From positions 930,001-962,000 of the forward strand of contig JBDHVY010000001.1 of assembly GCA_039809905.1 (NCBI GenBank): a stretch of DNA of 32,000 nt, written 5' to 3'. Below, piece by piece: positions 3,249 through 27,766 of this stretch (position 1 is the stretch's first letter; each line of letters begins with the position of its first letter). The stretch is from Candidatus Babelota bacterium (GTDB taxonomy: Bacteria; Babelota; Babeliae; Babelales; Vermiphilaceae). The notes beneath the pieces are model-generated. The model worked only from the letters and a program-made list of their open reading frames with translations, searched no databases and was not told the DNA's origin. The position numbers and the translations under genes were made by a program.

Positions 3249-3410
3249 GTAGTTATTCAATGCTTTAGCGCGCCAAAAAATAGTTAAATAATGCTAGAAA
3301 ATCCTATTTGATTATAAAATGAAACATGCGAGAAAAATAATTAAAAAATCATTTTCAATCTATACTGATAGATGTTGAAGATTATCAATTTATTCTCATG
3401 ATAGTGCATA

Positions 3411-6314: not shown

Positions 6315-6381
6315 CGCTTGGGCAGCTTGCCCTTGCCAGCTCGAAGAGCAAAATAGGGACATTCCATCGATTGGATGAATG

Positions 6382-6409
6382 TTGCGCAAATTTCTATTTG
6401 TGTTATAAT
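6382..6409 (+). promoter_or_regulatory. Candidate promoter with extended -10 for the first small secreted-protein gene
   Basis: TTGCGC (6382-6387), a 16-nt spacer, then TGT-TATAAT (TG at 6401-6402, TATAAT at 6404-6409). It lies 55 nt upstream of ATG 6464. Confidence 0.45.
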
Positions 6410-6463
6410 TATTGTTGATAGATTAATAAATGATCTAAAAAAATTAGTGTTTTGGGGGTTATT

Positions 6464-7078
6464 ATGAAAAACATGTTATTGTTTTGCTCGTTATTTTCTG
6501 CTACGGCTGTGATGGCTTTTGATGTTAGGCCTTTTGACCAAAAAAGTCGTGCCTGGAGCCCTAATATGGCTCGTCTAGAAGTAGAACTTCAAGCAGCGGT
6601 TAAGGCACTAAAAATAAGTAAGTTAGCTTTGGAGAAAGCGGAACAGAATCTTTTGGAAACTGATAAGCATAACCTGTATGTATCTACGAAAGAAACATGG
6701 CATTTCTGCCTTGATCAGGATAAGGATGATTATTATCATAAAAATCCTTTATGCAAAGGAATCCGTGAATTGCAAGCGGTTGCGCTCAACAAATTGAAGG
6801 AACATTCATTGTATCAAAAGCAATACCTTCCATGCTTACAAGAGCATGATCGCAATGAACAGACTGTAGCAATGTTATCGCGAGCGCGAGAATTTGCAGC
6901 AGAGCGAGGCGAGCATCATGAATGGCAAAAAGAATCTATGCTCAATGCGCTTGATTCTAAGAAATTTGAGACTGATGAGTCACTATCTAAATTTTATTTG
7001 GGTACTTCATATGATTATGCTCAAGTATGGGAACAAGCACGTCAAGATGTGCGTAAGTTTATTGAAGGATTAGAATAA
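6464..7078 (+). CDS. Small secreted helical protein, family member 1 (unknown function)
   Basis: ATG 6464 is preceded by GGGGG; the track ORF starts at TTG 6452. Signal peptide is MKNMLLFCSLFSATAVMA/FD. The protein is Q/K/E/A-rich and probably helical, with two Cys. It shares a C-terminal motif with 7843-8418 (QARQDVRKFIEGLE vs QAQQELRDFVENNIK). It shares a post-signal motif with 7167-7808 (FDVRPFD vs YDVDRFN). Confidence 0.75.
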   Translation: MKNMLLFCSLFSATAVMAFDVRPFDQKSRAWSPNMARLEVELQAAVKALKISKLALEKAEQNLLETDKHNLYVSTKETWHFCLDQDKDDYYHKNPLCKGIRELQAVALNKLKEHSLYQKQYLPCLQEHDRNEQTVAMLSRAREFAAERGEHHEWQKESMLNALDSKKFETDESLSKFYLGTSYDYAQVWEQARQDVRKFIEGLE

Positions 7079-7105
7079 AGTTTTTTAAAAATCGGTAACA
7101 TTTTT

Positions 7106-7139
7106 AGCCAGGAGCTATATTTTAGCTTCTGGCTTTTTC
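7106..7139 (+). terminator. Rho-independent terminator
   Basis: 11-bp stem AGCCAGGAGCT (7106-7116) / AGCTTCTGGCT (7124-7134) with one G-U pair and a 7-nt loop, followed by TTTTT (7135-7139). Confidence 0.8.
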
Positions 7140-7166
7140 TCCGGATACTCATTAAAAAATATAGGA

Positions 7167-7808
7167 ATGCTGGTGAATGTTTTGAATAAAAAATACTTCT
7201 TATTAATGGCCTTATTTAATTCGTGTGTTGTGATTAATAGTTACGACGTAGATAGGTTTAATATAGACAGGGAACATCTAGAAAAACTCATGAAAGAATC
7301 AGAACAAAAACAAATAGAATTGTGGAAAAAGAAAGCGATAGCAACTCAAAAATATTTACAAGATAATCCTGAGGTTCTAAAGGATCTTCAAGAGGCATAT
7401 GCAAACTTAAAGAAGAAACCAGAATCGATAGCGCAGGATGCATTAAGAGATCAGCATGGATATAGAGATCGGGGAGATTGGAACAAAAAATTCCAACTAA
7501 TGAATGAACTAAGCAAAAAATGTGAAGAGAGCAGAAAACCATTATTTTTTAGATATATACCGAGGTCAATATTTTTTGGTGAACCAGATTGCAAAGAGCT
7601 TGATAGGTTGCGTGGTGAAGACCGCAAGTTTGTTGCTGAAAGTATACGTTTAGGCAATATCATTTCTGCTTCAGATGAAAAGACAGAAGTTGAAAAAATA
7701 GAAAAAAAAATAAGAGACGAAGTCCGTGGTGTATATGGTTATAACTATGAAAAATTAGATATTGCCGATATGGAAGCAGAATTAAAGAAGTTGCGGATTT
7801 ATGAATAA
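7167..7808 (+). CDS. Small secreted helical protein, family member 2 (unknown function)
   Basis: 213 aa with a hydrophobic N-terminus (KKYFLLMALFNSCVVINS). Charged and probably coiled-coil-rich. It is in tandem with the neighbouring small secreted proteins. Confidence 0.7.
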   Translation: MLVNVLNKKYFLLMALFNSCVVINSYDVDRFNIDREHLEKLMKESEQKQIELWKKKAIATQKYLQDNPEVLKDLQEAYANLKKKPESIAQDALRDQHGYRDRGDWNKKFQLMNELSKKCEESRKPLFFRYIPRSIFFGEPDCKELDRLRGEDRKFVAESIRLGNIISASDEKTEVEKIEKKIRDEVRGVYGYNYEKLDIADMEAELKKLRIYE

Positions 7809-7842
7809 GAAAATGGTATGTAAATAATTTTTATGGGCTACA

Positions 7843-8418
7843 ATGAAAAAAATAATAATTTTGAGCTTCTTTTTTATATCGAATCTATTTGCTGATAATG
7901 CAGTACATAAAGCTATTATGAGGCAAGAATTTGATAGAGTTAAAACTGAAGCTGCTCAGCAATATAATGAGCGAGCTCAACACAAAGCTGTATTGCTTAA
8001 AAGTGATCAAGCAAGAGAATACCTTGCCGCTCAAAAAGATTGGTTTGATAATAGCTGTGCTCATAATACATCTGTAACATGTCAGAATATCAGTCAAAAA
8101 TTACAAAAAGCGTTAGCTCTTTTACAAAAAACAGAAACATATAATCAGCATTATGCACCAGTGCTTAAAGCCTATTATGTTAATGAAAAGAAATATGAGA
8201 TTCTTGGATTAATGGTAAGCATTTCGGTGCAACCAGAACAACTGAATCCGGCAATTAATTCAATTAAAGATCAAATGCTTTATGCAATAGATAGCATGAA
8301 AATAGAAGATAATCCTGAATCATCAAAATTATGGCTCGAGTTTTCATGTGATCGTGGTGCATTGCATAAGCAAGCACAGCAAGAATTACGCGATTTTGTA
8401 GAGAACAACATAAAATAA
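7843..8418 (+). CDS. Small secreted helical protein, family member 3 (unknown function)
   Basis: Signal peptide MKKIIILSFFFISNLFA/DN. The central W..(C)..C..I...LQ.A...L.K...Y.Q.Y.P.L segment and the C-terminus are alignable by eye with 6464-7078. It lies 34 nt after the previous gene. Confidence 0.75.
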   Translation: MKKIIILSFFFISNLFADNAVHKAIMRQEFDRVKTEAAQQYNERAQHKAVLLKSDQAREYLAAQKDWFDNSCAHNTSVTCQNISQKLQKALALLQKTETYNQHYAPVLKAYYVNEKKYEILGLMVSISVQPEQLNPAINSIKDQMLYAIDSMKIEDNPESSKLWLEFSCDRGALHKQAQQELRDFVENNIK

Positions 8419-8433
8419 TTATAAGGACGATTG

Positions 8434-8796
8434 ATGAACAAAAGGATTATGCTCTTATTTTTATTTGCGTGCTCGTTGGCGAATTGCCAAAGACTTCCAT
8501 CATATGAGGATTATTTAAAAGCTAATGATCTAACGGACAAAAAATTTGCAACACCAAATGGGAAGAAAATTCTTGAATTAGATTGTAAGATAAAAGAAAC
8601 ATATGGTTTACTTGAGATAGAAAGTATACGGTGTCAAAAAGCAAATGACTGTGAGACTTCGACAGAATTGCTACGTATTTTTGGTGAGATGCTTAAGTTG
8701 AAAAATGAGCTTAAGCGAGTAGAAGAAGAGGTAGAGAAAGAACCAGCGACTCAAGAGCGCGATAAGCTCTATAAAGAGATACTAAATAAATTATAA
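8434..8796 (+). CDS. Small secreted or lipid-anchored protein (unknown function)
   Basis: ATG 8434 has AAGGA at 8423-8427; the track ORF starts at TTG 8431. The N-terminus MNKRIMLLFLFACSLANCQ is signal-like with a possible Cys anchor. Four further Cys and a charged helical C-terminus follow. Confidence 0.7.
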   Translation: MNKRIMLLFLFACSLANCQRLPSYEDYLKANDLTDKKFATPNGKKILELDCKIKETYGLLEIESIRCQKANDCETSTELLRIFGEMLKLKNELKRVEEEVEKEPATQERDKLYKEILNKL

Positions 8797-8837
8797 AAAT
8801 TTGTTTCTATGCAAATATCGTAAATAATCTATATAAG

Positions 8838-8868
8838 AGCCAGGGGCTCATTTAGCCCCTGGCTTTTT
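8838..8868 (+). terminator. Rho-independent terminator (near-twin of 7106-7139)
   Basis: Perfect 11-bp stem AGCCAGGGGCT (8838-8848) / AGCCCCTGGCT (8854-8864), loop CATTT, then a T-run through 8868. Confidence 0.85.
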
Positions 8869-8955
8869 CCTTTTCCTTTACCTAACGCTATTTTCTGGTA
8901 CATTATATATATTAGTGTTTTTTAATGAAATTAGTCTTAAAAATAGGGGTTTATC

Positions 8956-9660
8956 ATGCATGATGAACACTCACATAGTCACAATCATGGTCATATCCAT
9001 AGTGGCGAAAATACCATTGTTCATGAATTATTATGTCATTTGCCATACGCAATCTATTCAGTAGCATTCAGTTTAATTATTCTCAGTATTTACTCTGTTT
9101 TTTCTATTGGGCTTGATCCTGCTATCATCAAAAAAGGTAGCAAGGCATTGTTTCATAGCTTCCATTTTATGCATATTGTTTTTGCTGCAACAGGAACAGT
9201 CATAACTTTTTGCCGTTTTTCTAAAAATTATTTTAGAGCGTTGCTTGTTGGTATTATTTCGCCAACATTTTTTTGTATTCTTTCTGATGCAGTATTGCCC
9301 TATATCGGTGGTACTCTTTTGGGTGTAGATATGCATTGGCATCTGTGCTTCTTAAAAGAACCGCAACGTGTTATTCCATTTTTGGTTGTTGGAATAATTA
9401 ATGGTTTTGTCATGAGCATGCATCATGAAAGTAAACAAGGCGGATATTCGCTCAGCTCTCATGCTTCGCATATTACTATCAGCTCATTGGCATCCACATT
9501 TTATTTGATTTCCCATGGCTTTACCAACTGGTATGTATCTATTGGAAATGTTTTTATTCTTTTGATCATAGCTGTTGTTGTACCTTGTACTTTGGCAGAT
9601 GTTGTGGTACCAATGACAATGGCTCGATTGGGTAAAGAACCAGATTCCTGTTGTGGGTAA
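8956..9660 (+). CDS. His/Cys-rich polytopic membrane protein, putative metal-ion-handling (family not recognised)
   Basis: The N-terminus is MHDEHSHSHNHGHIHSGEN. About six hydrophobic segments carry embedded His (FHSFHFMHIVF, HWHLCF, MSMHHES, SSHASHITISS). The C-terminus ends in PDSCCG. AGGGG lies 6 nt before the ATG. Only 29 nt separate its stop from potA. Confidence 0.7.
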   Translation: MHDEHSHSHNHGHIHSGENTIVHELLCHLPYAIYSVAFSLIILSIYSVFSIGLDPAIIKKGSKALFHSFHFMHIVFAATGTVITFCRFSKNYFRALLVGIISPTFFCILSDAVLPYIGGTLLGVDMHWHLCFLKEPQRVIPFLVVGIINGFVMSMHHESKQGGYSLSSHASHITISSLASTFYLISHGFTNWYVSIGNVFILLIIAVVVPCTLADVVVPMTMARLGKEPDSCCG

Positions 9661-9689
9661 TACACGATATAAAAAAGGCGGGCTGATGC

Positions 9690-10781
9690 ATGAGAACCAT
9701 TCGTTTTGAAAATATTACTAAACGTTATAATGGCGAAACTATCGTAGAAAATATTTCTCTGGAAATACCCGGAGGAACATTTTTTGCGCTGTTAGGTCCT
9801 AGTGGTAGTGGTAAAACAACATTACTGCGTCTTATTGCGGGATTAGAACAAGCCGATAGTGGATCAATTTTTTTGGGTAATGAAAATATTACTCATATGC
9901 CTGCATATAAACGTCGCGTCAATACCGTGTTTCAAAATTATGCCTTGTTTCCTCATATGGATGTTTTTGATAATGTGGCATATAGCTTATCTCTGCGCAA
10001 TATTCCTGAAAACATTATCGAAGAAAAAGTTATTAAAATATTAAAGGCCGTTGGTCTTGAAAAACATATTTATAAATCAATCAATAATCTTTCTGGTGGG
10101 CAAAAACAGCGCGTAGCTCTTGCGCGTGCAGTGATTAATGAACCGGATGTTCTTTTGCTTGATGAACCTCTTGCTGCATTAGATTTAAAATTACGTGAAA
10201 AAATGTTGATTGAGCTCATTGATTTACAAGATACGCTTCAAACAACATTTGTATATGTAACACATGATCAATTTGAAGCATTGACTGTTGCTGATAAGAT
10301 GGCAATTATGAATGATGATGGTGAAATTGAACAAGTTGGTACGCCAAAAGAAATTTATGAATTTCCCGTCAGTACATTTGTAGCCGAATTTGTAGGAACA
10401 ACTAATATTTTTAAAGGTAAGCTGCATATAATCAATGAAGAGCCAAAAATAGAATTTTCTGGTCTTGGTATGTTTGAAGTTGTTATTTCAAAAGAAAAGG
10501 AATGGATGAAACATGACAATATGGTATTCATGAGTATTCGTCCTGAAAAAATTGAAATTAGCAAAACGCCGATGACTGGTTTTTCTAATGCGCTTGAAGC
10601 AACGGTGAAATCAATCGTTTATCATGGAAGATCAACGCAATACAACGTGCGATTAAAAAATGGTGAAGTGATTCAGGTTTTTGAACAAAATGAAGAACAC
10701 TTCCCTCAAGAAGTTATTGATTATGACGACCATGTATTTTTATATTGGCAAAAAGAAAATGTGGTATTGTTAGAGAAATGA
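9690..10781 (+). CDS. potA: Spermidine/putrescine ABC transporter, ATP-binding subunit
   Basis: Walker A GPSGSGKTT, signature LSGGQKQR, Walker B VLLLDEP, H-loop YVTHD. The C-terminal extension is typical of PotA/CysA-type importers. It is the first gene of a potABCD-ordered operon. Confidence 0.88.
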   Translation: MRTIRFENITKRYNGETIVENISLEIPGGTFFALLGPSGSGKTTLLRLIAGLEQADSGSIFLGNENITHMPAYKRRVNTVFQNYALFPHMDVFDNVAYSLSLRNIPENIIEEKVIKILKAVGLEKHIYKSINNLSGGQKQRVALARAVINEPDVLLLDEPLAALDLKLREKMLIELIDLQDTLQTTFVYVTHDQFEALTVADKMAIMNDDGEIEQVGTPKEIYEFPVSTFVAEFVGTTNIFKGKLHIINEEPKIEFSGLGMFEVVISKEKEWMKHDNMVFMSIRPEKIEISKTPMTGFSNALEATVKSIVYHGRSTQYNVRLKNGEVIQVFEQNEEHFPQEVIDYDDHVFLYWQKENVVLLEK

Positions 10782-13576: not shown

Positions 13577-15394
13577 TTAAGATTTTAGATAAAAAAGTAA
13601 TTTTATGGAACATGCAATATAAAGAAACAATCCTGTTTTTGCTAAGACTAATGATAGATTATTTTTAAAATAATGTAATTTTCTATGCAATGGCTTGGTT
13701 AAAGAATGAAATAGAGAATCCTTATGGACATTTTTAGTAAGTAAAACGATATTACCTATTGTTTGTAGCCAATGTTTAATTTCAATACAACCACCTTGAC
13801 ACCATCCAGAGCAAGGTATCCTTATGCTTATTGCGGCTATTGTTTTGGTATCTTTGTGTTTGCATATCTTCATAAGCTGACTGTACTCATAGTCTGGGTT
13901 AAATCCATATTTTGAAGGAGTCTCGGATTCATTTTTGTGATACAGTAAGGATGGCTCAGTGCTTTTTATATCGCTTAATTGAGTTTTATAAAGATAAGTA
14001 TTATAAGGGCCGTTGTTGTTCTCGATATTATATCCAGTGAATAAAAAATCATTCGTAAGAAAGGCATGTGTCAACAAACCATTTTTTTTGGAATATTCGT
14101 GATCAATACGATGTTCTATAAAATCTGATAAGGTTAAATTATCAATTGATTTATTTGTAATAGTTGCCATTAATTGAGAAAATGATAGCAATAAAACAGT
14201 ATTTTTTTTGCATGAGTTAATTAAAGAAATGAACTCAGTAGGAATTTTTTTGTGAGTACAGGCTGGTGGTTGAGGAACGTCATAGTCTAACCATTCTTTG
14301 GTTATACAACTAAGTACGTTACTGCGTATTATTTGCTGTTGAGGGATGTTGACGGGTTCATTTTCCCATTTTTTTTTGTCTTGTGCCCATTTTTCTTTTT
14401 CTCTAAGGCAGTTATCACAGTCAGGTAATGAACTATAAGGAGATTGCTTGTCTACGCAACAGTTTTGTGCTGCAGAATGTCCTTTATAATGGTGTCTTGC
14501 GATTGTATTTTGATCGTGCGAAATATCGGATAACAAAATATAGTTATCATTTGTATCAATGGTATTGATTCTGAGTTGATTAATTGGTATTCGAAAAGAT
14601 TTAATCGAATTACCTAATTGGACCATGTGTACAAAATTATGCCCTCCCAATAGCACAAGGTTATTTTGTTCATTATAGTCAACCGAGTAGAGTTTTTCAT
14701 TACGAGGAAATGATTGAGAAAGTAGGGTCATTGTTTGTTTTTTTGATGATGATATCAAAGAAGAATTTTTCAAAATAGATCCAGAAGATGAAACAGCCAG
14801 TATGTTATCATTTTCATCTATAAACATTTTTTTTATTACATCTTTTTTCATAAGATGAGCAGTGAGATGATGTACGTTTAATAGTGTAGGTGAAACAATA
14901 TATGCGTTATTCGATTGATAAATATATACGTTGTTTTGATGTGCTACATAATAATTATTTTTTTTACGTGCAATATCATTAACAGGATGTTCATTGCACA
15001 GTTCAGGTACATCATTAAATTTATATTCTATTTTTGAGTAAGGATCAGTTTCTGTAAGAACGTTTAAAATTTTTTTAATTACAGGTTTATCTCGATAATT
15101 ACCTCCACTTAGTTCCCAGTGATCAACCATTTTATATTCAGAATAACAAGTGAATAACTTATTATTACTATCTAAACATACTAATACGTTATCGACTAAG
15201 TCCTTGTTGTGGTGATAGCCGTAATGCAGGAAGGGACTTATGTTTACTATCGGATGTTCTCCAATTTGGCATGGAATAACACGACTGGTGCTTGCAGTAT
15301 AATCTCGGTTAAACTCTTCAGGTTCACTTGCAAAGGAAGTTTTGAAAGAAAAAAATAGAGCAAAAATTATGAGTGTATAACGATTGTTGATCAT
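13577..15394 (-). CDS. Paralog A of a lineage-specific 600-aa family (signal peptide, Cys-rich ectodomain, C-terminal TM anchor)
   Basis: 605 aa with signal MINNRYTLIIFALFFSFKTSFA/SE and a C-terminal hydrophobic segment (LAKTGLFLYIACSIKLLFYL). Conserved islands shared with 15801-17633 include LLGGHNF, YILLSD, HKGH..Q.CC, YDVPQPP.C.HK and HWL..I.NI. No known domain recognised. Confidence 0.85.
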   Translation of the reverse strand: MINNRYTLIIFALFFSFKTSFASEPEEFNRDYTASTSRVIPCQIGEHPIVNISPFLHYGYHHNKDLVDNVLVCLDSNNKLFTCYSEYKMVDHWELSGGNYRDKPVIKKILNVLTETDPYSKIEYKFNDVPELCNEHPVNDIARKKNNYYVAHQNNVYIYQSNNAYIVSPTLLNVHHLTAHLMKKDVIKKMFIDENDNILAVSSSGSILKNSSLISSSKKQTMTLLSQSFPRNEKLYSVDYNEQNNLVLLGGHNFVHMVQLGNSIKSFRIPINQLRINTIDTNDNYILLSDISHDQNTIARHHYKGHSAAQNCCVDKQSPYSSLPDCDNCLREKEKWAQDKKKWENEPVNIPQQQIIRSNVLSCITKEWLDYDVPQPPACTHKKIPTEFISLINSCKKNTVLLLSFSQLMATITNKSIDNLTLSDFIEHRIDHEYSKKNGLLTHAFLTNDFLFTGYNIENNNGPYNTYLYKTQLSDIKSTEPSLLYHKNESETPSKYGFNPDYEYSQLMKICKHKDTKTIAAISIRIPCSGWCQGGCIEIKHWLQTIGNIVLLTKNVHKDSLFHSLTKPLHRKLHYFKNNLSLVLAKTGLFLYIACSIKLLFYLKS

Positions 15395-15441
15395 GATTGT
15401 TATTATTTCATTAAAGAAGTTAGTTTTTTGTATGTTTTTAA

Positions 15442-15797
15442 TTATTTTTCAAATTGGTGATACTGTTTTAATGCATAAATTGCCAAGATAAATGATCCCA
15501 TAGATAGCCCTATAAACAACCCTGTTTTTTCCAAAAATGGTGCTAGATTATTTGTAACCCAAAACGATTTTCTTTGTAATGAAGTCATTAAAGAACGAGG
15601 CCAACTGTTTTCATATATATTTTTACTAAATAAAACTACTATATTATTTATCTTTTGTTCCCAGTGCTCTTTTTGAGTTGCAATCTAACCTATCCCATTG
15701 AGAACACATAGTTCTTATGGGTATTGTGGCTATTGCAGATCCATCTTTATTTGTACATATTTTCATTGAGCGAGTGGTATTATGAAGAAATAAAAAA
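15442..15797 (-). pseudogene. Orphan, frameshifted 3'-terminal fragment of a third member of the 600-aa family
   Basis: My minus-strand translation gives NTTRSMKICTNKDGSAIATIPIRTMCSQWDRLDC. After a 1-nt frame change it continues ATQKEHWEQKINNIVVLFSKN...LQRK...NNLAPFLEKTGLFIGLSMGSFILAIYALKQYHQFEK, then a stop at 15442-15444. This aligns with the last ~110 aa of paralog A (YSQLMKICKHKDTKTIAAISIRIPCSGWCQGGCIEIKHWLQTIGNIVLLTKN...LAKTGLF...). No 5' part and no start codon are present. Confidence 0.7.
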
Positions 15798-15800
15798 CTA

Positions 15801-17633
15801 TCATAAAATTCCTATAAGCAGAGCGAGTTTATATAGTGCAAAGAAAGTACAGGTCTGTATTGCTAGTGAGCCAAATATATGTATTGAAGCTAGAGGTACA
15901 TCTAATGTTTTAAAATGCCGTATTGCTCTGCGCAATGATCTCATTAAAGAACTTACCCTAGCATCACCAGATGGGTTGTTTTTACTGAACAAAGCAATAT
16001 TGTGTATTCTCTCAAGCCAATGTTCTTTTGAAGTGCAAAAGAATTGACACCATTTAGAGCACAAAATTGTTTTATCGATTATGGCTATTGTTCCGTTTTC
16101 GTTTCTTTGTATTATCAGAGAAAGAGACATAGGGGCACTTTCATAATTAGAATTTTTTAAATCTGGTTCACTTGAATAATAGAATGATTTTTCGTATGGA
16201 GTTTTAAAAAGTTGGTTAATTGTGTCTTTATTTATAGTATTGAGTGGAACTTGATAAATAAAATGATTAAGGGAAGAATGTACTGTTTTGAGACATCCAA
16301 TGAATAAAAAATCATTGATAAGAAAGGCATTAACCAATGTGTCACATTCGTTCAAATGTTTATGATGAATACGATGTTTTATAAGTTTAGCACGAGTGGA
16401 ATTTTCTGTCATGGCGCCTATTAAGCTAGAAAGCGATAGTAATACAATAGTATTTTCTCTACACGAATTGATAAAAGAAGTAGCTTTCGCATCAGGTGTT
16501 TTGTGTGGACACTCTGGTGGTTGAGGAACATCATAATGCAAATACTGTTGTATGTCCTGATTGATTGTTTTGCGTGTTGTTTTCAGGGAGATTTCAAGTT
16601 TTTGATTTTCCCAAGATTCTTTTCGCTGTTGCCAATTTTTTTTGTATTCTGTGCATGTTTGACAATCCCTTAAGGTATTATGAGGAAAAGTTTTTTCTAT
16701 ACAGCATTGCTGTTTTGCATGATGTCCTTTATGGTTACGAGTTTCTCTTTCATTTTGATTTTGTATGAGATCAGATAATAAAATATACTCATTGTTGGTA
16801 TCAATATGAGAAATCCTTAGTTGATCAATGGCTATCTGAATGGCCTTCATAGAATCATTTAATGGTATTATCTGTATAAAATTATGGCCTCCCAATAGCA
16901 CAATATTATTTAGTTCATTATAGGCAATTGAGTATAATATTTCATCAGAGGGAAATGTTTGGTAAAGAAATGAAAGGATCTGTTTATCCGAGGATTGTGA
17001 ATGAGAAGAGTTTCTTAGTACACATCCAAGTGATGTAATGGCTATCACATTATCATCTTTATCTATAAATATTTTCTTGATTATGTGTTGATCATCTTTG
17101 CTTTTCAGATGATTTCTACGTAATAATGCAAGCGATCTAATATGCGCATTATTCGATTGATAAATGTATACATTGTTTTGATGAGCTACATAATAATTAT
17201 TTTTCCTGCGTGCTATATCATTAACAGGATATTCATTGCATAATTCAGGTACATCGTTAAATTTATATTCTATTTTTGTGTAAGAATCTGTTTCTGTAAG
17301 AACGTTTAATTTTTTTTGAATTATAGGATTTGTTCGATAGCCTGTCGATAGTTCCCAGTGATCAACCATTTTATATCCGGAATAACACGTGAATAATTTG
17401 TTATTGCTATCTAAACATACTAGCACATTATCTACCAAGTCTTTATTGTGGAGATAACCGTCATGTTTGAAGAGGTTGTTGGTTATTGAATACTCTCCAA
17501 TGCCACACGAAATAACACGGCTTGTACTTGCGGTGTAATCTCGCTTAAATTCTTCAGATTTTTCACTTGCAAAGAAATTTTTAAAAGAAAAAAATAGAGC
17601 AAAAATTATGAGCTTATAATTATTTTTGATCAT
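15801..17633 (-). CDS. Paralog B of the lineage-specific 600-aa family
   Basis: 610 aa with signal MIKNNYKLIIFALFFSFKNFFA/SE and a C-terminal hydrophobic tail (FGSLAIQTCTFFALYKLALLIGIL). The first ~170 aa are nearly identical to paralog A; the remainder is much more divergent. Confidence 0.85.
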   Translation of the reverse strand: MIKNNYKLIIFALFFSFKNFFASEKSEEFKRDYTASTSRVISCGIGEYSITNNLFKHDGYLHNKDLVDNVLVCLDSNNKLFTCYSGYKMVDHWELSTGYRTNPIIQKKLNVLTETDSYTKIEYKFNDVPELCNEYPVNDIARRKNNYYVAHQNNVYIYQSNNAHIRSLALLRRNHLKSKDDQHIIKKIFIDKDDNVIAITSLGCVLRNSSHSQSSDKQILSFLYQTFPSDEILYSIAYNELNNIVLLGGHNFIQIIPLNDSMKAIQIAIDQLRISHIDTNNEYILLSDLIQNQNERETRNHKGHHAKQQCCIEKTFPHNTLRDCQTCTEYKKNWQQRKESWENQKLEISLKTTRKTINQDIQQYLHYDVPQPPECPHKTPDAKATSFINSCRENTIVLLSLSSLIGAMTENSTRAKLIKHRIHHKHLNECDTLVNAFLINDFLFIGCLKTVHSSLNHFIYQVPLNTINKDTINQLFKTPYEKSFYYSSEPDLKNSNYESAPMSLSLIIQRNENGTIAIIDKTILCSKWCQFFCTSKEHWLERIHNIALFSKNNPSGDARVSSLMRSLRRAIRHFKTLDVPLASIHIFGSLAIQTCTFFALYKLALLIGIL

Positions 17634-17999
17634 AACTATTATTGATCCTATGAGCTGATGAACTTTTGTTTATATGTTTTAATTATTATTGAAAAATGTT
17701 TATTTGTCGAATGTATTTCCAAGTATGTTAAAAAAATAAGTCGATAGATTTTTGTTATAAAGTTGTATAAATATTTTCAGTTGTAAAACGATAGTGAAAT
17801 ATTTTGCAGATGATATTTCCAACAATATTGCACAAGTCCTTGCTTTTGTTATTTCTTTTTTATTAAAACTTGGACATTAGTTTTATTGCTTGTGCGAGCA
17901 GAAGATGTTGACATTCTAGAATAATCGGGGTATGCGTGTAAGAGCATACTGCATTAGAATGATGTAATAAAATGAGAAAAAATATCTCTTGAACGGAGT

Positions 18000-18087
18000 C
18001 CCCATTTTATCCCCACTTTCGCTATCGCTTCACCGGGGTCCTCATGTGAAACGAAGTAAAACCAGGGGTGAAAAATAGAGAATGGGG
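18000..18087 (+). promoter_or_regulatory. G-run/C-run structured element in the 5' leader of the 1446-aa gene (candidate regulatory RNA)
   Basis: Two CCCC runs (18000-18003, 18011-18014) and three GGGG runs (18035-18038, 18065-18068, 18084-18087) lie in an otherwise very A/T-rich 500-bp intergenic region. A small hairpin TTCAC (18029-18033) / GTGAA (18046-18050) is also present. Alternative C4:G4 pairings are possible. Confidence 0.25.
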
Positions 18088-18134
18088 TTAATAAGTAGTG
18101 AAGTAGTAGTTTTTCTAAAAAAAAGGGTGAGTAT

Positions 18135-21100
18135 ATGAAAAGATGCTTTTCTCGCTATCGATTAGCTCTTTTTGCGATATCTTTAGCGTCCTCCACGATT
18201 TTTGCAGATCAGATATGGAGGGGAATAACAACATGCGATGTTGTTGATGAAAATCTTGTCATCAAAGATGATGTCTTGCTTCCACTTGGTGGAATAAGAA
18301 TCGAAGCAATTCACAAAGATGTTACGGTTACATTAACAAGAGATGTAGTCATTAGTGGCCATTGGGCTGGCGAATCCGATCTTTATTTAGTTGCTGCAGA
18401 AGGCAGAAAAATTCGTTTTGAATTAGAGCATGATCTAACATTTGTTGGATCTTCTGCTATTACAAGCGATGATCTTTTAATTGTTCAAAGTGGTCCTGGT
18501 ACCGTTGAAGTTGCTATTCAAGATGGCAATGTTTTTGAACTTACTTCACGAGATTGTTCTGGTGGTGCGTTGTATTACGTACTCATGTATGGTGGTGTAA
18601 ATGCACCGATTGATGAATATTGTCACGATGAATATGCAAAACCATGTTGTGATGAATATACATGTGGTGGATTATTTGATGAATATGGTGATGAATATTG
18701 TTCACCAGGTAATGGTTGCAACGAAACAAGTCAAGAGAGACCAACACTGAGTTTTGTTTCACTAGAAAATGTATTACGTGCACCATTACAAAATAAACGT
18801 GTTATTGTTGGTCCTAAATCCAAATTGAGCTACTTATCATCTCGTAAAGTTGGTGTAGGTCAAGATTCTGGTATCATCCAATTTGATGCTGCAATTGATG
18901 GCCCAGGACGTATGATTTTGGAACTTCAAGATAAAGGTGCGGTAGTTATAACTGGTATTTACACATGCCAAAGAGATGGTGGTTGTATTACGTTGTGTGA
19001 TATTAAACCTACTGTTGCGGCAGGAAGTGAAGCTATCTTTAGAACAATAAATAGTTTAGGTTCTTTTGTTTCAGCGGGATTGCTTGTATTAGATGGTAAT
19101 GAAACTTTATCTGAACTATTGATTGATCCATTTTTAAATCTTGGTGCGCGCGATGATGCACAAGCATTCCGTGGAACATTCTCAGGTAGACGATATGGTT
19201 TTGTTCTTGGTGCTAATGGTGTGTTATCTATTACTTCTGATTCATACCTTGATTTTGTTGGTCTTGCGCTCAACCAAATTCCTTGCATTGCATTACGTAC
19301 ACCACTTCAAATAACTAAAACATTAAAATTACGTAATCCATCTGCGCTTATTATCGATGGTAATCTTAATCCGCAAGCTACCGATGCACAAATACTCTTT
19401 GAAGAAAGAGCTGCTTTATTCTTACGATCAGGCGTTGGTCAAGATTGCACTATTCGTGATGAATTTGATATGGATCCATTCACGGTAGATGCAGATAATC
19501 ATACTCCTGGTATTGGTAACATAGTATTTGATGTTGAAGGTGAATTGAATGTTATTGGTGCAACGTCTCCAGCTGATGGCGTTACCAGTAAGATTGAATT
19601 ATTATCATTAGAAGTGTTTCCAACCGGTGGACCTCTATTTGTAGGTTCAGGAGAAACAAATTTCCCATTACGCACGTTTAATACAGAAGATAATGAACTT
19701 CTTATGTATAACTGCGGTGCGTTCTTAATTAATAATATCATGACATTAACTGATACAGATTTAAGCCATACAGATGAATGTCATAACGTTTGTCCAAATA
19801 ATGATCTTAGATCAGAACCAACATATGTTGGTGGTGAAACATTCAGACTACTTGAGTCGGATGTAAGACCAAGTATTCGTTTTATTAATGCACAGCTTGA
19901 TGTACATACTGATATAGCATTAACAGGTATGGATTTAGTTGTTCCAAACTTTGTTGATGATATGGGTGTATTGCAACAAAATCTTTCTAACTTTACTTTC
20001 TTCTCTAATGGTTCATGTGTTGATAATGGTACCGGTCGCTCCATGATTCTTGGTACACGTATTGGTTCAACAGCTGCTGATGGATGCACTCGTATCGATG
20101 CAGATGCGCATCTTGATGTTATGCAATTAGAAGATGCAAATTCATCTAATGTTGATCCTCTCAATCCAGATGGTGATCAAACATTAGAACTTTTAACTGC
20201 AATGAATGATGATACTATTAACAACTTGATTATAGATAATGATAGTACTTCAATTCACAACATATTCTTAGGTGGTACAAGTAATATTTCTATCGGTGTT
20301 AATGCAGATTCTACTGGATTTAATATTGATACCCACCCATGGCTTCGTATTGCGGGTAACGTGTTTTCATTCACTGCTCGTGGTGGAGAAGCTACTGTAT
20401 TGCGTAGTATTACTTCAGGTAAAAACGCGATATTTGTTGATTTGAATGGTAAATTCAGTATTGATCCAGGATTTATCGCAAGTATTTGCGTGATGGTTAT
20501 TAAGAGCCATAATGGTATTGTTGATCTTCCTGCTGATCAAGTTTTCTTCTGTGCAGGTGCTGGTATTACAACATGGGATGTTGATCTATCAAATCCAGAT
20601 GATCAAATAATTATTGGTCCTGATCAATCTTTATCAACATATATATTCAATTGGATTCTTGCGCATAAAGATTGTCCAAACTTTACACCATTCAATTGTT
20701 GTACGACGTCGTGCACATGCCCAGTAGTTACTGAAGCAAATGTAACAGGTTTACCGACAATTCAAGGCACGGTGAATGATTTACAAATTCAAGGCAGCCG
20801 TATTGGTGATCCAGCTCAATTCTTGATTGATGGTGGTTTTGTTCGCCAATTAACTTTCTTGGATAGTGCTTGTGCTGCAGTTGCTCCGGTAGCTGTTATT
20901 ACATTAGCAAACAATGGTCGTATTGGTCTTGATTCTACCACAAACTTAGGCGTAAACGGTATTACCATTATTGCTAATGGTTCTGGTCAAGTTTTGGTCA
21001 ATGATGATCTGATTATTAATAATATGTGTGCGTTTGTAAAAGGTCCTGATTTTGCATCATGCGATGTATTAGAATTATACAGCGCAGTACCACGTGAAAT

Positions 21101-22475
21101 TCGTGTGAAATCAACTGGTACACTTAATCTGACTTCATTTACTAATCCAACAGAGATTGTTGCTCTTGCAGGTCAATTAAAATTGGTTGTAGAACCAGGT
21201 GCCAAAATTATTACTGGCGCAGGAACTCTACGATTCAGTGGTGATTCTCAACTATTATTCGAGCCAGCAAATAATGCAGTAGATTTCTTTGCTGCAATTC
21301 CACATGGTGCACACGATGATACGCTTGCTATAGAAACAGTTGATGCAGCAGATGTCCATAACATACTTTCTTCATTGACCAATTTTGCAAATGGTTTGCA
21401 TAATACTGATCAATTCCGTGTCAGCATTGTTGGTGGTGGTACTATTGAATTAGTTGATAATGCACAAGGTTCATTACCGTTCAATGCGTTTGTTGGTATT
21501 GAAACAATTAATACGGCGACATGCTCAATTCCAACAACAGACATCACCTTGAATATTGCTGATAATGGTGTGTTTGCAATTGGACATTTCAATTACAATG
21601 AAGGCGGTGTGTTGCAAATAGGTAACGTTGAAGATCTTGGAGTTGATCATAGCGTGAGCTTTACGCTTACTCTTGATGGTGAAAATGCTAATTTCACTAT
21701 CGGTAGCCGTGGATTCTTAGGTCTTGGCGTTGGTATTGAACGTTTTGATGGTCAACCTGAAGTGTTAACTGTTCGTGCTCGCACATGTCCAACTAACTTT
21801 GTACCAAATGAAAATATCGTTGATACATTGAGCAACGTTTCAAACATTACCTTTAACTTCCTCAATGGTCGCTTTGAGCATGATCGTATCTTCTCAGGAG
21901 ATAACGTTAATGCTTCATTAGTAGCTGTTGGAAATAATGAGGGTATGACGTTTGATCTTAATTTTGAAGTTGATGGTGAAAATGTTGATGTTACTTTAGA
22001 AAGAACATCAGACTTTAATGTTGCTGGTGGCGGTAACATGGTATTAGTTTCAGAAGGTGTTGGTGGTATTCATCCGGTTGTACTTGATCAAAATGGTGTG
22101 ATTACCGATCGCTTGAGTGCAGGTGTTATGGCATCAACATTGTTAGAACCAGATAACGTTGATGTGACAGGATTAACTGCCGCGGAATTCTTTGATTACT
22201 TTACTACGCATGATGCATTATTATCTCAAGATCGCATTAATACTCTTGGCAGAGCAAACGCTGCAAGTCAGGGTGATAGCTTTAGACCAGGATTTGATGG
22301 TGCTCGAATTGATACGGTGATTAATGGTAATATTGTTCGTGGACCATTGTATCAGTTGCTTGGCTCAGGTGATCAAAATTCTCAACGTCAAGATGCAATT
22401 GATGTTGCAGCAGTGTTTGTCAATATTGATGGCAGATTGAATGAGATTCTTACTGCAACAAATATAGAAAACTAA
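18135..22475 (+). CDS. Giant secreted surface-protein candidate (beta-helix-like composition), unknown family
   Basis: 1446 aa with SD-like GGGTGAG 4 nt before the ATG. Signal peptide MKRCFSRYRLALFAISLASSTIFA/DQ. Gly/Asp/Asn/Thr/Val/Ile-rich with many short strand-like segments. Cys clusters include a DEY-Cys cluster and FNCCTTSCTCP. The C-terminus (...LTATNIEN) has no barrel signature. Confidence 0.9.
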   Translation: MKRCFSRYRLALFAISLASSTIFADQIWRGITTCDVVDENLVIKDDVLLPLGGIRIEAIHKDVTVTLTRDVVISGHWAGESDLYLVAAEGRKIRFELEHDLTFVGSSAITSDDLLIVQSGPGTVEVAIQDGNVFELTSRDCSGGALYYVLMYGGVNAPIDEYCHDEYAKPCCDEYTCGGLFDEYGDEYCSPGNGCNETSQERPTLSFVSLENVLRAPLQNKRVIVGPKSKLSYLSSRKVGVGQDSGIIQFDAAIDGPGRMILELQDKGAVVITGIYTCQRDGGCITLCDIKPTVAAGSEAIFRTINSLGSFVSAGLLVLDGNETLSELLIDPFLNLGARDDAQAFRGTFSGRRYGFVLGANGVLSITSDSYLDFVGLALNQIPCIALRTPLQITKTLKLRNPSALIIDGNLNPQATDAQILFEERAALFLRSGVGQDCTIRDEFDMDPFTVDADNHTPGIGNIVFDVEGELNVIGATSPADGVTSKIELLSLEVFPTGGPLFVGSGETNFPLRTFNTEDNELLMYNCGAFLINNIMTLTDTDLSHTDECHNVCPNNDLRSEPTYVGGETFRLLESDVRPSIRFINAQLDVHTDIALTGMDLVVPNFVDDMGVLQQNLSNFTFFSNGSCVDNGTGRSMILGTRIGSTAADGCTRIDADAHLDVMQLEDANSSNVDPLNPDGDQTLELLTAMNDDTINNLIIDNDSTSIHNIFLGGTSNISIGVNADSTGFNIDTHPWLRIAGNVFSFTARGGEATVLRSITSGKNAIFVDLNGKFSIDPGFIASICVMVIKSHNGIVDLPADQVFFCAGAGITTWDVDLSNPDDQIIIGPDQSLSTYIFNWILAHKDCPNFTPFNCCTTSCTCPVVTEANVTGLPTIQGTVNDLQIQGSRIGDPAQFLIDGGFVRQLTFLDSACAAVAPVAVITLANNGRIGLDSTTNLGVNGITIIANGSGQVLVNDDLIINNMCAFVKGPDFASCDVLELYSAVPREIRVKSTGTLNLTSFTNPTEIVALAGQLKLVVEPGAKIITGAGTLRFSGDSQLLFEPANNAVDFFAAIPHGAHDDTLAIETVDAADVHNILSSLTNFANGLHNTDQFRVSIVGGGTIELVDNAQGSLPFNAFVGIETINTATCSIPTTDITLNIADNGVFAIGHFNYNEGGVLQIGNVEDLGVDHSVSFTLTLDGENANFTIGSRGFLGLGVGIERFDGQPEVLTVRARTCPTNFVPNENIVDTLSNVSNITFNFLNGRFEHDRIFSGDNVNASLVAVGNNEGMTFDLNFEVDGENVDVTLERTSDFNVAGGGNMVLVSEGVGGIHPVVLDQNGVITDRLSAGVMASTLLEPDNVDVTGLTAAEFFDYFTTHDALLSQDRINTLGRANAASQGDSFRPGFDGARIDTVINGNIVRGPLYQLLGSGDQNSQRQDAIDVAAVFVNIDGRLNEILTATNIEN
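18612..18698 (+). repeat. Five dispersed copies of GATGAATAT (Asp-Glu-Tyr) interleaved with Cys codons
   Basis: GATGAATAT occurs at 18612, 18627, 18651, 18678 and 18690. Together they encode IDEYCHDEYAKPCCDEYTCGGLFDEYGDEYCSPGNGC. Confidence 0.9.
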
Positions 22476-22539: not shown

Positions 22540-24411
22540 ATGGATGTAATAAAAAAAAGGAAACTGATGAAGAAAACCTTAAAGAGCATTGCGCTTCTAG
22601 GCGCATTATGTGGTGGGTCACTTCATGCGACTTTTCAATTTAGATCGCCGCTGAGTTTAGAAGATCGCGGTTATATGCACTGGTTACTTGCACCAGCTGA
22701 TCAAGCGTGGTGGTATGATCAAATGCCAAGTGAAAAAACTCGTACAGATTGGAATGTTCACGTGTGGGGCGCTGGTTATGTGCGTAATGCATGCGAAGCT
22801 TTTTTATCGTGCACTCCTTGTTCTAATAAAGTAACTCGTGATACAACATCACTTTCTCAACTCTTTTTTGGTAAATCAGTGTTTCGCGGTGAAGATATTT
22901 TTGCTGGTGGAACATTCGCTGGTAATCCAACTGCTCTTGAACTTGTAAACTCAATAAATCCATTTTTAGCGTTTGCGCGTATTAGCCCTGTTTTTGATTA
23001 CAATGAAACAGGCGCACATATAGGTGTTGATTTTGCTAAATATCTTGGCGAAAATGATAGGTTCCATGTTGGTGCAAGAACCTATATTCCTTATAAAATA
23101 ATTGAAATTGAACAAGATACAAGCATTCAACTTGAAGAAACATTAGATGATGTTTTTATAACAAGAATAGTCAAACTTAATGAAGGACCAACTCCTAACC
23201 AAGTTGAATATGCTCTAAGATATGATTTCTTAAGCACTCTTGTGTTTAATACAGTAACGACACCTTCTGCAATAGTTCAACCACAACCTGTTGTGGTATA
23301 TAATAATCCGGCAGGACAAGTTAGCGTGACTGGTGTACAAATTTCTGCACCTACATCTGCTGGTGATGGTGTAGACACAGATATTCCTGCTGCCTATTTT
23401 ACTAAAAGCGATGCAGGTACGACGCCAATACCGCCATTTAGAAAATTACCAAGTCAAGCAGGGCAACCATTAGGGCCTGATGGACAAGGTATAAATGGTC
23501 AATCATATTTTATGCAAACAGGTGTTGATTATGCTGGGCAGTTACAAAACGATAGAGATGCGCAAACCACTTTATTTCTTGTGCCGCGTTCAAATGTAGA
23601 TGGTACTATAACTGCTAATGCTCAAACTATTCTAACGAACGTCAGACAAATTGTTAATGACGATCTTGCCATTTCCGAACCAGCTTCTACGTTCTTTTTA
23701 AATAATGGCATTAATCTTTTAGCGCATGAATGTATCAGAGGTGTGGGCGATTTATTTGCCGAAGTATATGGTGGTATTGGACATTATGATGATTGGTTTG
23801 TAGATGGTATTTTTGGCGTTCAATTTCCAACAGCAAAACGCCAAGAACATGCAAAACAAATTTTTTATCAAACACTTGGTAACAATGGCCATGTTGAAAT
23901 TAAACTTGCTCTAGATGGTGGTTGGAGACCGCGCGAGTGGTTTGCTTTTGAAATTCGTCCATCATTCTTCCATGCATGTAAGCGTTCTGAAAGACGTGCT
24001 GCTCCATTCTTAGGTGCAACTGTTGCAAATATTGGACCAGAAATTGATGTAAATGTTTCATGGAATTATTTTGTGCTTCGTACAGACTTTAGTTTCTTCC
24101 ATCCACACAATCCTGATCTCGGATTTGTATTAGGATATGAACTATTTGCTAAAGGAAATGACAGAGTATCATTTGGTTCATGCATTCCATGTGATAATGA
24201 AACAGCAACAGATTTGCTAGGCCGTCCAAATCAACCACTCAGCCTTGCTATTTATGAACATGGTACAAATTCCCTCACCAATAAATTACGTGGTCAAATA
24301 TTCTATCGTTGCCACTATTTTGAAGTCTTTGGTGGTGGAACACAAATTGTTTCTGGTAGACATGCTATGAAAGAAAGTGAAGGTCATATTGGTTTAGCAA
24401 TATACTTCTAG
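22540..24411 (+). CDS. Outer-membrane beta-barrel protein candidate (porin or anchor), unknown family
   Basis: 623 aa with signal peptide MKKTLKSIALLGALCGGSLHA/TF; the second Met at 22567 has AAGGA 5 nt upstream and may be the true start. Aromatic-rich alternating segments are present. The C-terminal strand HIGLAIYF ends in Phe, like a BAM substrate beta-signal. There is a central P/Q/G/T-rich insert, and two CxxC pairs (CTPC, CIPC). Confidence 0.8.
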   Translation: MDVIKKRKLMKKTLKSIALLGALCGGSLHATFQFRSPLSLEDRGYMHWLLAPADQAWWYDQMPSEKTRTDWNVHVWGAGYVRNACEAFLSCTPCSNKVTRDTTSLSQLFFGKSVFRGEDIFAGGTFAGNPTALELVNSINPFLAFARISPVFDYNETGAHIGVDFAKYLGENDRFHVGARTYIPYKIIEIEQDTSIQLEETLDDVFITRIVKLNEGPTPNQVEYALRYDFLSTLVFNTVTTPSAIVQPQPVVVYNNPAGQVSVTGVQISAPTSAGDGVDTDIPAAYFTKSDAGTTPIPPFRKLPSQAGQPLGPDGQGINGQSYFMQTGVDYAGQLQNDRDAQTTLFLVPRSNVDGTITANAQTILTNVRQIVNDDLAISEPASTFFLNNGINLLAHECIRGVGDLFAEVYGGIGHYDDWFVDGIFGVQFPTAKRQEHAKQIFYQTLGNNGHVEIKLALDGGWRPREWFAFEIRPSFFHACKRSERRAAPFLGATVANIGPEIDVNVSWNYFVLRTDFSFFHPHNPDLGFVLGYELFAKGNDRVSFGSCIPCDNETATDLLGRPNQPLSLAIYEHGTNSLTNKLRGQIFYRCHYFEVFGGGTQIVSGRHAMKESEGHIGLAIYF

Positions 24412-26578: not shown

Positions 26579-27766
26579 ATGAAAAAATCTATTTTTTTGT
26601 TCTTAATGATTATTTTTATTGATGCTGGAGCTTCTGAGGATAGATTAACTCTTTGGAATAGAGTCGGTTGCTATGAGGATTTGCATAGTCGTCGTGTTCA
26701 GCCTAATCGACCAATGATGATTTTATTCAAGAGCATGGCAATTTCTGCAGATTTTTCGCGGGTACAAGTTAACTTTAAAGAATTATATTCAAAGATAGAC
26801 TATTCAGTTTGGTATGATGTAAATACTATAAAGAATTTGGATTTCAGTAGCGCAATAGATTTTGTTGCAAAAGAAATAAAAACACGCTCAAGTACTGATT
26901 CTGTGTTTAATGAAAAATTGAAGAATGAATATTTTTGTCTTGGATTACTGAATAATATTCAAAAGAATATACCAGATTCTGCTAGTAGACGTATTGGTAA
27001 TAAGTTAAATTTTTTAAGTCAGATGAAAAAGGTAACGGAAAATCATATTAATGCGATGCTTCATTTGGAAAGATCTAATGATGTGGAAAATCGATTGAAA
27101 TTGTTTTCTATTAAAAAAGATACATCATCAGACCTCTATATAGTAAAATGTCAAGATGAGTCTTATGAAATAGACCTTGGTTGGACATATTGCTGGAGAC
27201 CACAGGGAGAATTGGTTAATCTTCTAGAGATAATGATTACAGCGCGTGCTATGCCGGTAATAGATGAGTTATTGGCAACAGGTAGGTTCGATCTCAATGC
27301 ATTGGCTAGCACCAAAAAAACCCTCTTGATGGAGGCAGATACTTCGGTTGTGTTCCATTTATTAACGCGATATAAAGCTAAGATTGATATTAACAAAAAA
27401 GATTTTTTTGGAAATACAGCATTGACTGACGCGATAGAAGTATTTGGTGAGAAGATTAGGCTTAGTGAACAGTATGAGCAGTTAAAGTCGTTATTAGCTC
27501 TATATGAAGCTAAGATTGATATTAATAAAAAAGATTTTTTTGAAGATGCAGCATTGATTTGGAATACAAAAAATTTAAAACGTTATATTAAGCAGTATGA
27601 GGAAAAATTATCTCATTTAAAGTCCTCACATACAAAAATAGTTATTTTATTAGTTAGAGGTGCAGATCCTGAAATTAGAAATGGTCAAGGTTTAAATGCG
27701 TTCGATATAGCTGGAGCACTTGGAGATCAAACAATCATTTCTTGTCTTGAGAAAAGTCGGAAATAA
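26579..27766 (+). CDS. Secreted ankyrin-repeat protein
   Basis: Signal peptide MKKSIFLFLMIIFIDAGA/SE. The C-terminal half has ANK-like units (KDFFGNTALTDAIE..., KDFFEDAALIW...) and a canonical one, LLVRGADPEIRNGQGLNAFDIAGALGDQTIISCL. Confidence 0.8.
   Translation: MKKSIFLFLMIIFIDAGASEDRLTLWNRVGCYEDLHSRRVQPNRPMMILFKSMAISADFSRVQVNFKELYSKIDYSVWYDVNTIKNLDFSSAIDFVAKEIKTRSSTDSVFNEKLKNEYFCLGLLNNIQKNIPDSASRRIGNKLNFLSQMKKVTENHINAMLHLERSNDVENRLKLFSIKKDTSSDLYIVKCQDESYEIDLGWTYCWRPQGELVNLLEIMITARAMPVIDELLATGRFDLNALASTKKTLLMEADTSVVFHLLTRYKAKIDINKKDFFGNTALTDAIEVFGEKIRLSEQYEQLKSLLALYEAKIDINKKDFFEDAALIWNTKNLKRYIKQYEEKLSHLKSSHTKIVILLVRGADPEIRNGQGLNAFDIAGALGDQTIISCLEKSRK
27371..27559 (+). repeat. Intragenic direct repeat (two 57-nt copies, 132-nt period)
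   Basis: Copy 1 (27371-27427) and copy 2 (27503-27559) are 51/57 identical by my alignment. They encode YKAKIDINKKDFFGNTALT and YEAKIDINKKDFFEDAALI. Confidence 0.85.

Follow-up and report, generated by a model that had tools for sequence, protein, structure and literature searches.

Tandem paralogs with a predicted exported β-propeller fold, conserved heads and diverged bodies in a Candidatus Babelota bacterium

The stretch of DNA analysed here, which we call the window, comprises 32,000 nucleotides (nt) of a Candidatus Babelota bacterium (positions 930,001 to 962,000 of contig JBDHVY010000001.1, assembly GCA_039809905.1). It is AT-rich, with a GC content of about 29–41%, and carries two adjacent paralogous genes, A and B, on its minus strand. 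To one side of the pair lie gltX, a gene for a pentapeptide-repeat protein, the gene for BamA, several small unannotated open reading frames (ORFs), and potABCD; beyond A and B are a divergently oriented 1446-amino acid (aa) ORF and a 623-aa ORF. The window further includes a 304-aa ORF, a gene for an EamA transporter, a 395-aa ORF, metG, and two unannotated minus-strand ORFs. A preliminary description of this DNA had likened the A-B pair to polymorphic or antigenically variable surface-protein loci, and had named gene conversion and diversifying selection as possible origins of the pattern. Our analysis mostly points elsewhere. We hold with moderate confidence that the whole is best explained by tandem paralogs encoding an exported propeller, with a head conserved by constraint, at a locus subject to birth and death.

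The two proteins align end to end with 51% identity, and the similarity is distributed very unevenly. The first third, termed the head (A residues 1–166), matches B at 135 of 164 positions (82% aa and 83% nt identity), whereas the remainder, termed the body (A residues 167–605), matches at 175 of 429 (41% aa and 59% nt identity; Fisher p = 4e-20 for the contrast). Thus, the preliminary account of two intact tandem paralogs with similar heads and diverged bodies is borne out. Divergence is not uniform along the alignment, as sliding windows reveal a sharp drop in identity at about codons 166 to 180, and the head ends at A residue 166 (…YVAHQNNVYIYQSNNA). Islands of similarity that had been picked out in the body by eye reappear in this profile, for example at columns 226 to 255 with 70% aa identity. 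Two nucleotide blocks of the head, at 15110–15220 and 17350–17460, do align without gaps and are similar, but the earlier wording that they are almost superimposable was too strong, with differences falling mostly at third codon positions. The rates of nonsynonymous (dN) and synonymous (dS) substitution in the head are 0.11 and 0.68, respectively, and their ratio, omega, is about 0.1–0.2 in the head versus about 0.45–0.5 in the body, with maxima of 0.8–0.9 in loop-rich windows.

Family members from two further genomes provide a measure against which the head can be judged. One of these, P0001, adjoins potD on a 292-kb contig (L001) that maintains synteny with the window. Because the L001 neighbors are 70–97% identical to their counterparts in the window (PotA 90%, BamA 79%, PotD 70%), P0001 derives from a different organism. 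The other, P0003, is the single family copy of a third genome (L002) and is located between a homolog of the 1446-aa gene and potD. In the core of the head (A residues 64–166), aa identity is 88% between A and B and 82% between P0001 and either of them, and P0003 still reaches 71–75%. Nucleotide differences in this core amount to 14% for A-B and 16% for both A-P0001 and B-P0001, with corresponding dS/dN values of 0.65/0.07, 0.58/0.11, and 0.61/0.11. Body identities are likewise alike, at 41% for A-B, 43% for A-P0001, and 44% for B-P0001. The longest exact nucleotide run shared by A and B is 29 nt, versus 33 nt for A and P0001. The sliding profile of nucleotide identity has the same shape in each of the six pairs, and mean pairwise identity across the family is 55–66% in the first four blades of the predicted fold and 25–39% in the insert and the last three. 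Since core-head divergence between A and B equals that between organisms, and since the shape of the profile is shared, the head appears to be a family-wide module under strong purifying selection, with the N-terminal blades constrained far more tightly than the insert, blades 5 to 7, and the anchor. Thus, the contrast between head and body would mostly reflect uneven constraint rather than recent copying between A and B. At synonymous sites, the paralogs are not closer to each other than to orthologs in the core head, and are so only weakly in codons 1 to 24.

The fold predicted for these proteins places head and body in a common frame. An AlphaFold model built with 18 family sequences (mean predicted local distance difference test [pLDDT] 74.9, predicted template modeling score 0.72) contains about 28 strands in about seven blades; it superseded a run with six sequences that was too poor (pLDDT 48). 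From the N terminus, the model has a signal-peptide helix, a short, conserved strand formed by the residues RDYTAST, four strand-rich blades (about residues 64–289), and a partly helical insert (about 290–396), followed by three blades (about 397–556) and a long C-terminal helix (560–604). Foldseek returned mostly WD40-type and other β-propellers with a probability of about 1.0 and TM scores of 0.2–0.6, the best of which (0.59) was for Sec12 (4h5i_A); against BFVD it retrieved generic propellers only. Among the 18 members searched against Pfam, one distant member matches WD40_CDC20-Fz (4.3e-5) and four other propeller models gave single weak matches, and neither A nor B has a propeller-relevant Pfam match at E ≤ 0.1. 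The model and the structural matches are consistent with the earlier hunch of a β-propeller, and we predict that A and B each form one propeller of about seven blades, interrupted after the fourth by a helical insert rich in Cys and His. Because the predicted fold spans both, head and body would not be separate domains but parts of one propeller, in which blades 1 and 2 (for A-B; blades 1 to 4 family-wide) are conserved and the rest evolves rapidly. Within the insert, the C, CxxC, CxH, and SC positions are invariant, the GH and the second C are nearly so, and a helix of varying length separates CxxC from CxH. The insert may bind a metal or be held together by disulfides.

Features at both ends of the proteins suggest how the propeller is placed in the cell. 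By inspection, the N terminus resembles a signal peptide, with an n-region, a hydrophobic core of 11 to 12 residues, and a terminal …SFA/SE; this feature is conserved, as judged by eye, in most full-length members, although P0015 appears to be without one. Kyte-Doolittle hydropathy in a 19-residue window peaks near the C terminus at 1.77–1.78 (residue 582 of A and 592 of B), and a comparable peak of 1.7–2.5 is present in most members. A and B carry no lipobox, since Cys is absent from the predicted cleavage site, and neither protein ends in an aromatic residue. These characteristics are consistent with the exported, Cys-containing, C-terminally anchored architecture that had been proposed, wherein A and B are probably Sec-exported, the C-terminal helix would serve as a membrane anchor, and the propeller would reside outside the cytoplasm.

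The history of the locus is recorded in additional copies. An orphan 3′ cassette had been noted near the pair, and it exists as a frameshifted relic (Table 1) that shares 42% of its aa with the tail of A, compared with 29% for B and 27% for P0001; it appears to be what is left, after decay, of a third copy resembling A. No other family fragments were found by tblastn in the window, and, among the matches listed from the 1,228,744-bp contig, B is the sole other intact member. A second copy on L001, upstream of P0001, spans 8126–9393 by tblastn and is divided into two ORFs (8021–8872 and 9166–9738) that correspond to P0008 (283 aa) and P0016 (190 aa), with identical lengths in the ENA and Logan assemblies. 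The former, an N-terminal fragment of about 280 aa, is 44–45% identical to A and B and 51% identical to P0004 and P0005, and this second copy thus seems to represent a more divergent lineage nearer to P0004 and P0005 than to A, B, or P0001. Copy number therefore varies between related genomes, as the preliminary description had suspected, with two intact copies and a 3′ relic in the window, one intact and one fragmented copy in L001, and one copy in L002; the family has not emerged as one of housekeeping function and fixed copy number. A, B, and P0001 lie at roughly equal distances from one another, which dates the A-B duplication to about the time when the organisms split. We conclude that the locus evolves by birth and death, through duplication and decay, and not as a cassette system. 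Databases hold no close strain variants of A or B, and the cluster of B has one member. The 90% cluster of A comprises A and two unrelated peptides of 38–41 aa, and is represented by a 41-aa peptide encoded between FGGY-kinase and aldolase genes; owing to this clustering artifact, A is missing from its own match list.

Regions upstream of the two genes are also related, in agreement with the preliminary description. There are exactly two copies of the motif AATAATTAAAA[A]CATA in the window (15431–15446 and 17673–17687, both on the minus strand), versus 0.01 expected by chance. The sequence TCGACA, a 17-nt spacer, and AATAAT, followed by …TTAAAACATA, is common to B, P0001, and P0003, and is predicted to be a sigma-70-like promoter with 10 of 12 matches. 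With the relic abutting the motif, gene A has kept the −10 part alone. No intrinsic terminators are predicted near the A and B genes, and Rfam has no match in the whole window, nor in a more permissive scan of 15300–18200. Divergent intergenic blocks at 17816–18006 and 18077–18134 are 83–95% identical to L001 and L002, which equals or exceeds the identity of the adjacent family coding sequence (about 60–84% nt between genomes). The intergenic block includes a perfect TTGACA on the plus strand and CTTACA-18-TAGAAT on the minus strand, and is probably a shared promoter or a control region in a 5′ untranslated region.

Table 1. Features of the A-B locus. Coordinates refer to the window.
Feature	Position	Strand	Basis
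Paralog A, 605 aa	13577-15394	-	ORF; AlphaFold, Foldseek, C-terminal hydropathy peak
Head of A (codons 1-166): putative signal peptide, linker with RDYTAST strand, predicted propeller blades 1-2	14897-15394	-	Identity to B; dN/dS
Shared motif AATAATTAAAAACATA, −10-like element upstream of A; overlaps stop codon of relic	15431-15446	-	Motif search, upstream alignment
Frameshifted relic, last ~100 codons of apparent third family copy, with hydrophobic helix and stop	15442-15766	-	tblastn E = 7e-14, two frames
Paralog B, 610 aa; architecture as in A	15801-17633	-	ORF; full-length alignment to A
Head of B (codons 1-165)	17139-17633	-	Identity to A; dN/dS
Promoter-like site upstream of B: TCGACA, 17-nt spacer, AATAAT, then shared motif	17673-17710	-	Promoter scan 10/12; alignment of four upstream regions
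Conserved non-coding block between B and 1446-aa gene	17816-18006		83% over 192 nt in L001; 87.5% over 120 nt in L002; no Rfam match

Sequence relatives of A and B are rare. A search of 5.8 billion clusters recovered five matches, one of 1.84 billion representative proteins recovered 17, and the pair appears to belong to a very small, uncharacterized family restricted to Dependentiae. The family profile and a profile of the Cys/His insert had no match in a sequence search of the PDB, and with the family alignment as query no relative was found among GTDB representative genomes, nor was one found among JGI metagenome contigs. Literature on exported or WD40 proteins of Dependentiae contains nothing on this family. 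The distant members P0007, P0009, P0010, and P0011 are single copies in unrelated contexts and have no conserved operon partner. A possible linkage to a 623-aa neighbor at the distant locus L011 was dismissed, as that protein is unrelated both to the family and to the 623-aa protein of the window. We regard A and B as members of an orphan family not described before, although exported propellers and tandem lineage-specific paralogs are known kinds and the evolutionary pattern is an ordinary one.

Gene conversion between the tandem copies, as a form of concerted evolution, could in principle have homogenized the 5′ third while the remainder diverged freely, and the extreme 5′ end does show a paralog-specific excess of similarity. 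In the signal-peptide codons (the first 24 to 30 or so), A and B differ at 11% of nucleotides, versus 26–31% between either of them and P0001 (p about 0.01–0.02). Codons 25 to 63 follow the same trend without significance (29% for A-B versus 39% to P0001), quartet sites in codons 1 to 63 favor AB|P1P3 by 8:2:1, and in a Sawyer-type permutation test on polymorphic sites the longest A-B concordant run, of 15 sites, ends at codon 17. This excess, which perhaps extends to codon 63, may represent a short, old conversion tract or co-adaptation of the signal peptides. However, most of the similarity resides in the core head, where A and B are as divergent as the organisms are and differ mostly at synonymous sites. 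In addition, the exact runs that A shares with B do not exceed in length those that it shares with its ortholog, and the conservation gradient is seen family-wide and also between species, such that homogenization of the 5′ third is an unlikely explanation. Far more improbable is a programmed antigenic-variation or polymorphic-toxin-like system, in which an expressed gene recombines through its head with silent or orphan 3′ cassettes. The conserved 5′ part, the variable 3′ part, and the promoter-less 3′ fragment between A and B do resemble such a layout, but this single frameshifted fragment is too diverged from A to act as a sequence donor, and the longest exact A-B run is short. Moreover, A and B are both intact and carry promoter-like sequences of their own (a full −35/−10 pair for B and only a −10-like motif for A), their bodies are homologous over the whole length as part of one propeller rather than exchangeable modules, the locus is devoid of a demarcation motif and of a small immunity-like downstream ORF, and neither protein has a match in PADLOC.

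Diversifying selection from an arms race with a host or phage, acting on the C-terminal two thirds, is a rather unlikely source of the variable body. Such selection would be consistent with the fact that omega of the body is about threefold that of the head, with columns 461 to 520 reaching a dN of 0.9 and a dS of 1.1, with a family that diverges faster than its housekeeping neighbors (about 50% identity versus 70–97% for PotA-D, BamA, and a 234-aa protein), and with the turnover in copy number among genomes. Yet omega exceeds 1 in no window, and dS is near saturation, which renders omega unreliable. The fastest windows coincide with indel-bearing loops modeled at low confidence (pLDDT < 50 at residues 490–503), as relaxed constraint predicts, and other exported neighbors without known relatives evolve equally fast (48–61% identity for the 623-aa, 304-aa, and 191-aa proteins). 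Thus, the selection on the body put forward in the preliminary description is not demonstrated by these data, and unequal constraint along a single propeller at a locus of gene birth and death accounts better for the observations.

If the predicted fold and topology are correct, then A and B may act as binding platforms anchored in the envelope. The conserved blades, together with the N-terminal RDYTAST strand, would keep the ring closed and/or hold a conserved bacterial partner, and the fast-evolving blades and the Cys/His knob would contact a rapidly changing ligand, plausibly a host-side or surface component of this host-dependent bacterium. A role in the envelope fits the neighborhood, where BamA, a 1446-aa exported protein, and a 623-aa signal-peptide protein that ends in …AIYF are encoded, and it fits the strong conservation, across three genomes, of the divergent intergenic block that the family shares with the 1446-aa gene. 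A more specific proposal, which we consider doubtful, is that of a Dependentiae-specific host-interaction module, wherein the conserved blades dock a bacterial partner, perhaps the 1446-aa protein and the neighboring putative outer-membrane protein, and the variable blades and a new Cys/His knob, possibly stapled by zinc or disulfides, bind host structures.

Several points weigh against the interpretation of A and B as exported propellers whose heads are preserved by constraint. The model was built on 18 sequences only, and the secondary-structure string, not the coordinates, was the source for the number of blades and for the ‘velcro’ role assigned to the N-terminal strand. The C-terminal helix is only moderately hydrophobic (Kyte-Doolittle value about 1.8), and C-terminal hydropathy does not exceed 1.6 in P0010, P0011, and P0015. 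No homology-based function is available, as A and B have no meaningful match in Pfam, NCBIfam, PHROGs, or PADLOC. Distant family members have no such envelope-gene neighbors. In a diderm cell, anchoring in the inner membrane through the C-terminal helix would confine the propeller to the periplasm, a point against direct contact with a host. With regard to the head, the Sawyer-type test identifies a maximal A-B fragment that covers codons 2 to 167 (p = 0.0005), whereas control pairs are nonsignificant, and an ancient conversion across the entire head may have been blurred by later substitutions.

Comparison with known systems clarifies what kind of proteins these may be. Like WD40 propellers and Sec12, A and B are predicted to form a toroid of four-stranded blades with strand motifs such as ‘...ILAVSS.G.I’, ‘LLGG.NF’, and ‘ILLSD’, and as in Sec12 the propeller would be followed by a C-terminal membrane helix. 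Sec12, however, is a cytosolic, type II protein, whereas A and B are probably exported via a signal peptide. They also differ from WD40 propellers in having no Pfam WD40 match, in TM scores of only 0.2–0.6, in the insert of about 100 residues that splits the propeller, and in sequence relatives confined to a few Dependentiae-like metagenome contigs. BamB and TolB are exported propellers of the diderm envelope that serve as protein-binding scaffolds, and the genes for A and B similarly lie among envelope genes (BamA, a putative outer-membrane protein, and a large exported protein). BamB, however, is an eight-bladed lipoprotein, and TolB, which is not anchored, carries an additional domain at its N terminus, whereas A and B have no lipobox and end in a helix. 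Identity with BamB or TolB was rejected given the absence of NCBIfam or Pfam matches and of a Cys at the predicted cleavage site, and a distribution too narrow for a core envelope component.

Tandem families of surface or exported paralogs that evolve by birth and death occur in obligate intracellular bacteria, as exemplified by chlamydial Pmp and rickettsial Sca proteins. The A-B family is likewise lineage-specific, putatively exported, tandem, and rapidly diverging, with copy-number differences and decaying copies, but it has neither an autotransporter barrel nor passenger repeats, bears no relation to Pmp or Sca in sequence or fold, and would be surface-exposed only putatively. Cassette-based antigenic variation is known from Neisseria pilE/pilS, Borrelia vlsE, and Anaplasma msp2, and orphan C-terminal cassettes accompany Rhs/CDI systems. 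The similarity of A and B to these is one of superficial layout (conserved 5′ part, variable 3′ part, nearby 3′ fragment), since they have a lone decayed relic, no near-identical recombination tracts, and no immunity genes, and since the parts that vary are homologous to each other and belong structurally to the same predicted domain. Both candidate assignments were discarded: in place of the several silent cassettes with near-identical flanks of an antigenic locus there is one frameshifted relic, and the bodies align end to end as one predicted domain with neither a supported small downstream ORF nor a Pfam or PADLOC toxin match, as opposed to a polymorphic toxin or Rhs-CDI locus.

Other genes in the window provide additional context. 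The MetRS encoded there is 77% identical to that of the metagenome-assembled genome of ‘candidate division TM6 bacterium SOIL31’, which places the source organism in the Dependentiae, and no tRNAs are present in the window. The 1446-aa protein (18135–22475, plus strand) has a signal peptide and no match in any family library; L001 and L002 each carry a homolog that adjoins the family gene, with 55–90% identity by segment. The 623-aa protein (22540–24411, plus strand) also has a signal peptide, and its C terminus, …GLAIYF, is typical of outer-membrane barrels. A homolog was recovered in L001 only (48–89% by segment), as the L002 contig stops within the homolog of the 1446-aa gene. On the ENA contig of L001, tblastn finds the latter homolog broken into at least 11 pieces (3288–7653), and potB and potC on this contig are shorter than their counterparts in the Logan assembly of this organism, which suggests indel errors in long reads and not genuine decay.

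Four small ORFs located 3′ of BamA (208, 213, 191, and 121 aa; 6452–8796) have no family match. Judged by position, their products could be periplasmic chaperone-like proteins of the Skp/OmpH type. The 208-aa and 191-aa proteins match one common L001 gene (26% and 51% identity, respectively) and may be diverged paralogs. A 234-aa protein (8956–9660, plus strand), encoded directly upstream of potA, is the product of the most conserved gene of the neighborhood (97% aa identity in L001 and 85% in L002) and is without a match in Pfam and NCBIfam. The pentapeptide-repeat protein (2142–3179, minus strand) has weak similarity to effectors of the PipB/PipB2 type, and the 395-aa protein (26579–27766, plus strand) has a weak ankyrin-repeat match; both are repeat proteins of the eukaryote-interaction type, typical of host-dependent bacteria.

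The pair offers a caution, in that tandem paralogs with a conserved head and a variable body can resemble the products of conversion or antigenic variation until an ortholog from another genome reveals mostly uneven constraint. The practical value of the finding is modest, with no tie to a known pathway and no sign of a new mechanism. Nevertheless, the predicted fold and topology, and a domain map that distinguishes conserved blades, variable blades, and a Cys/His insert, make an anonymous pair of ORFs testable. As obligate parasites or symbionts of protists, Dependentiae are widespread, and if the host-interaction proposal, doubtful as we consider it, were true, then duplication and loss at this locus would tune host range.

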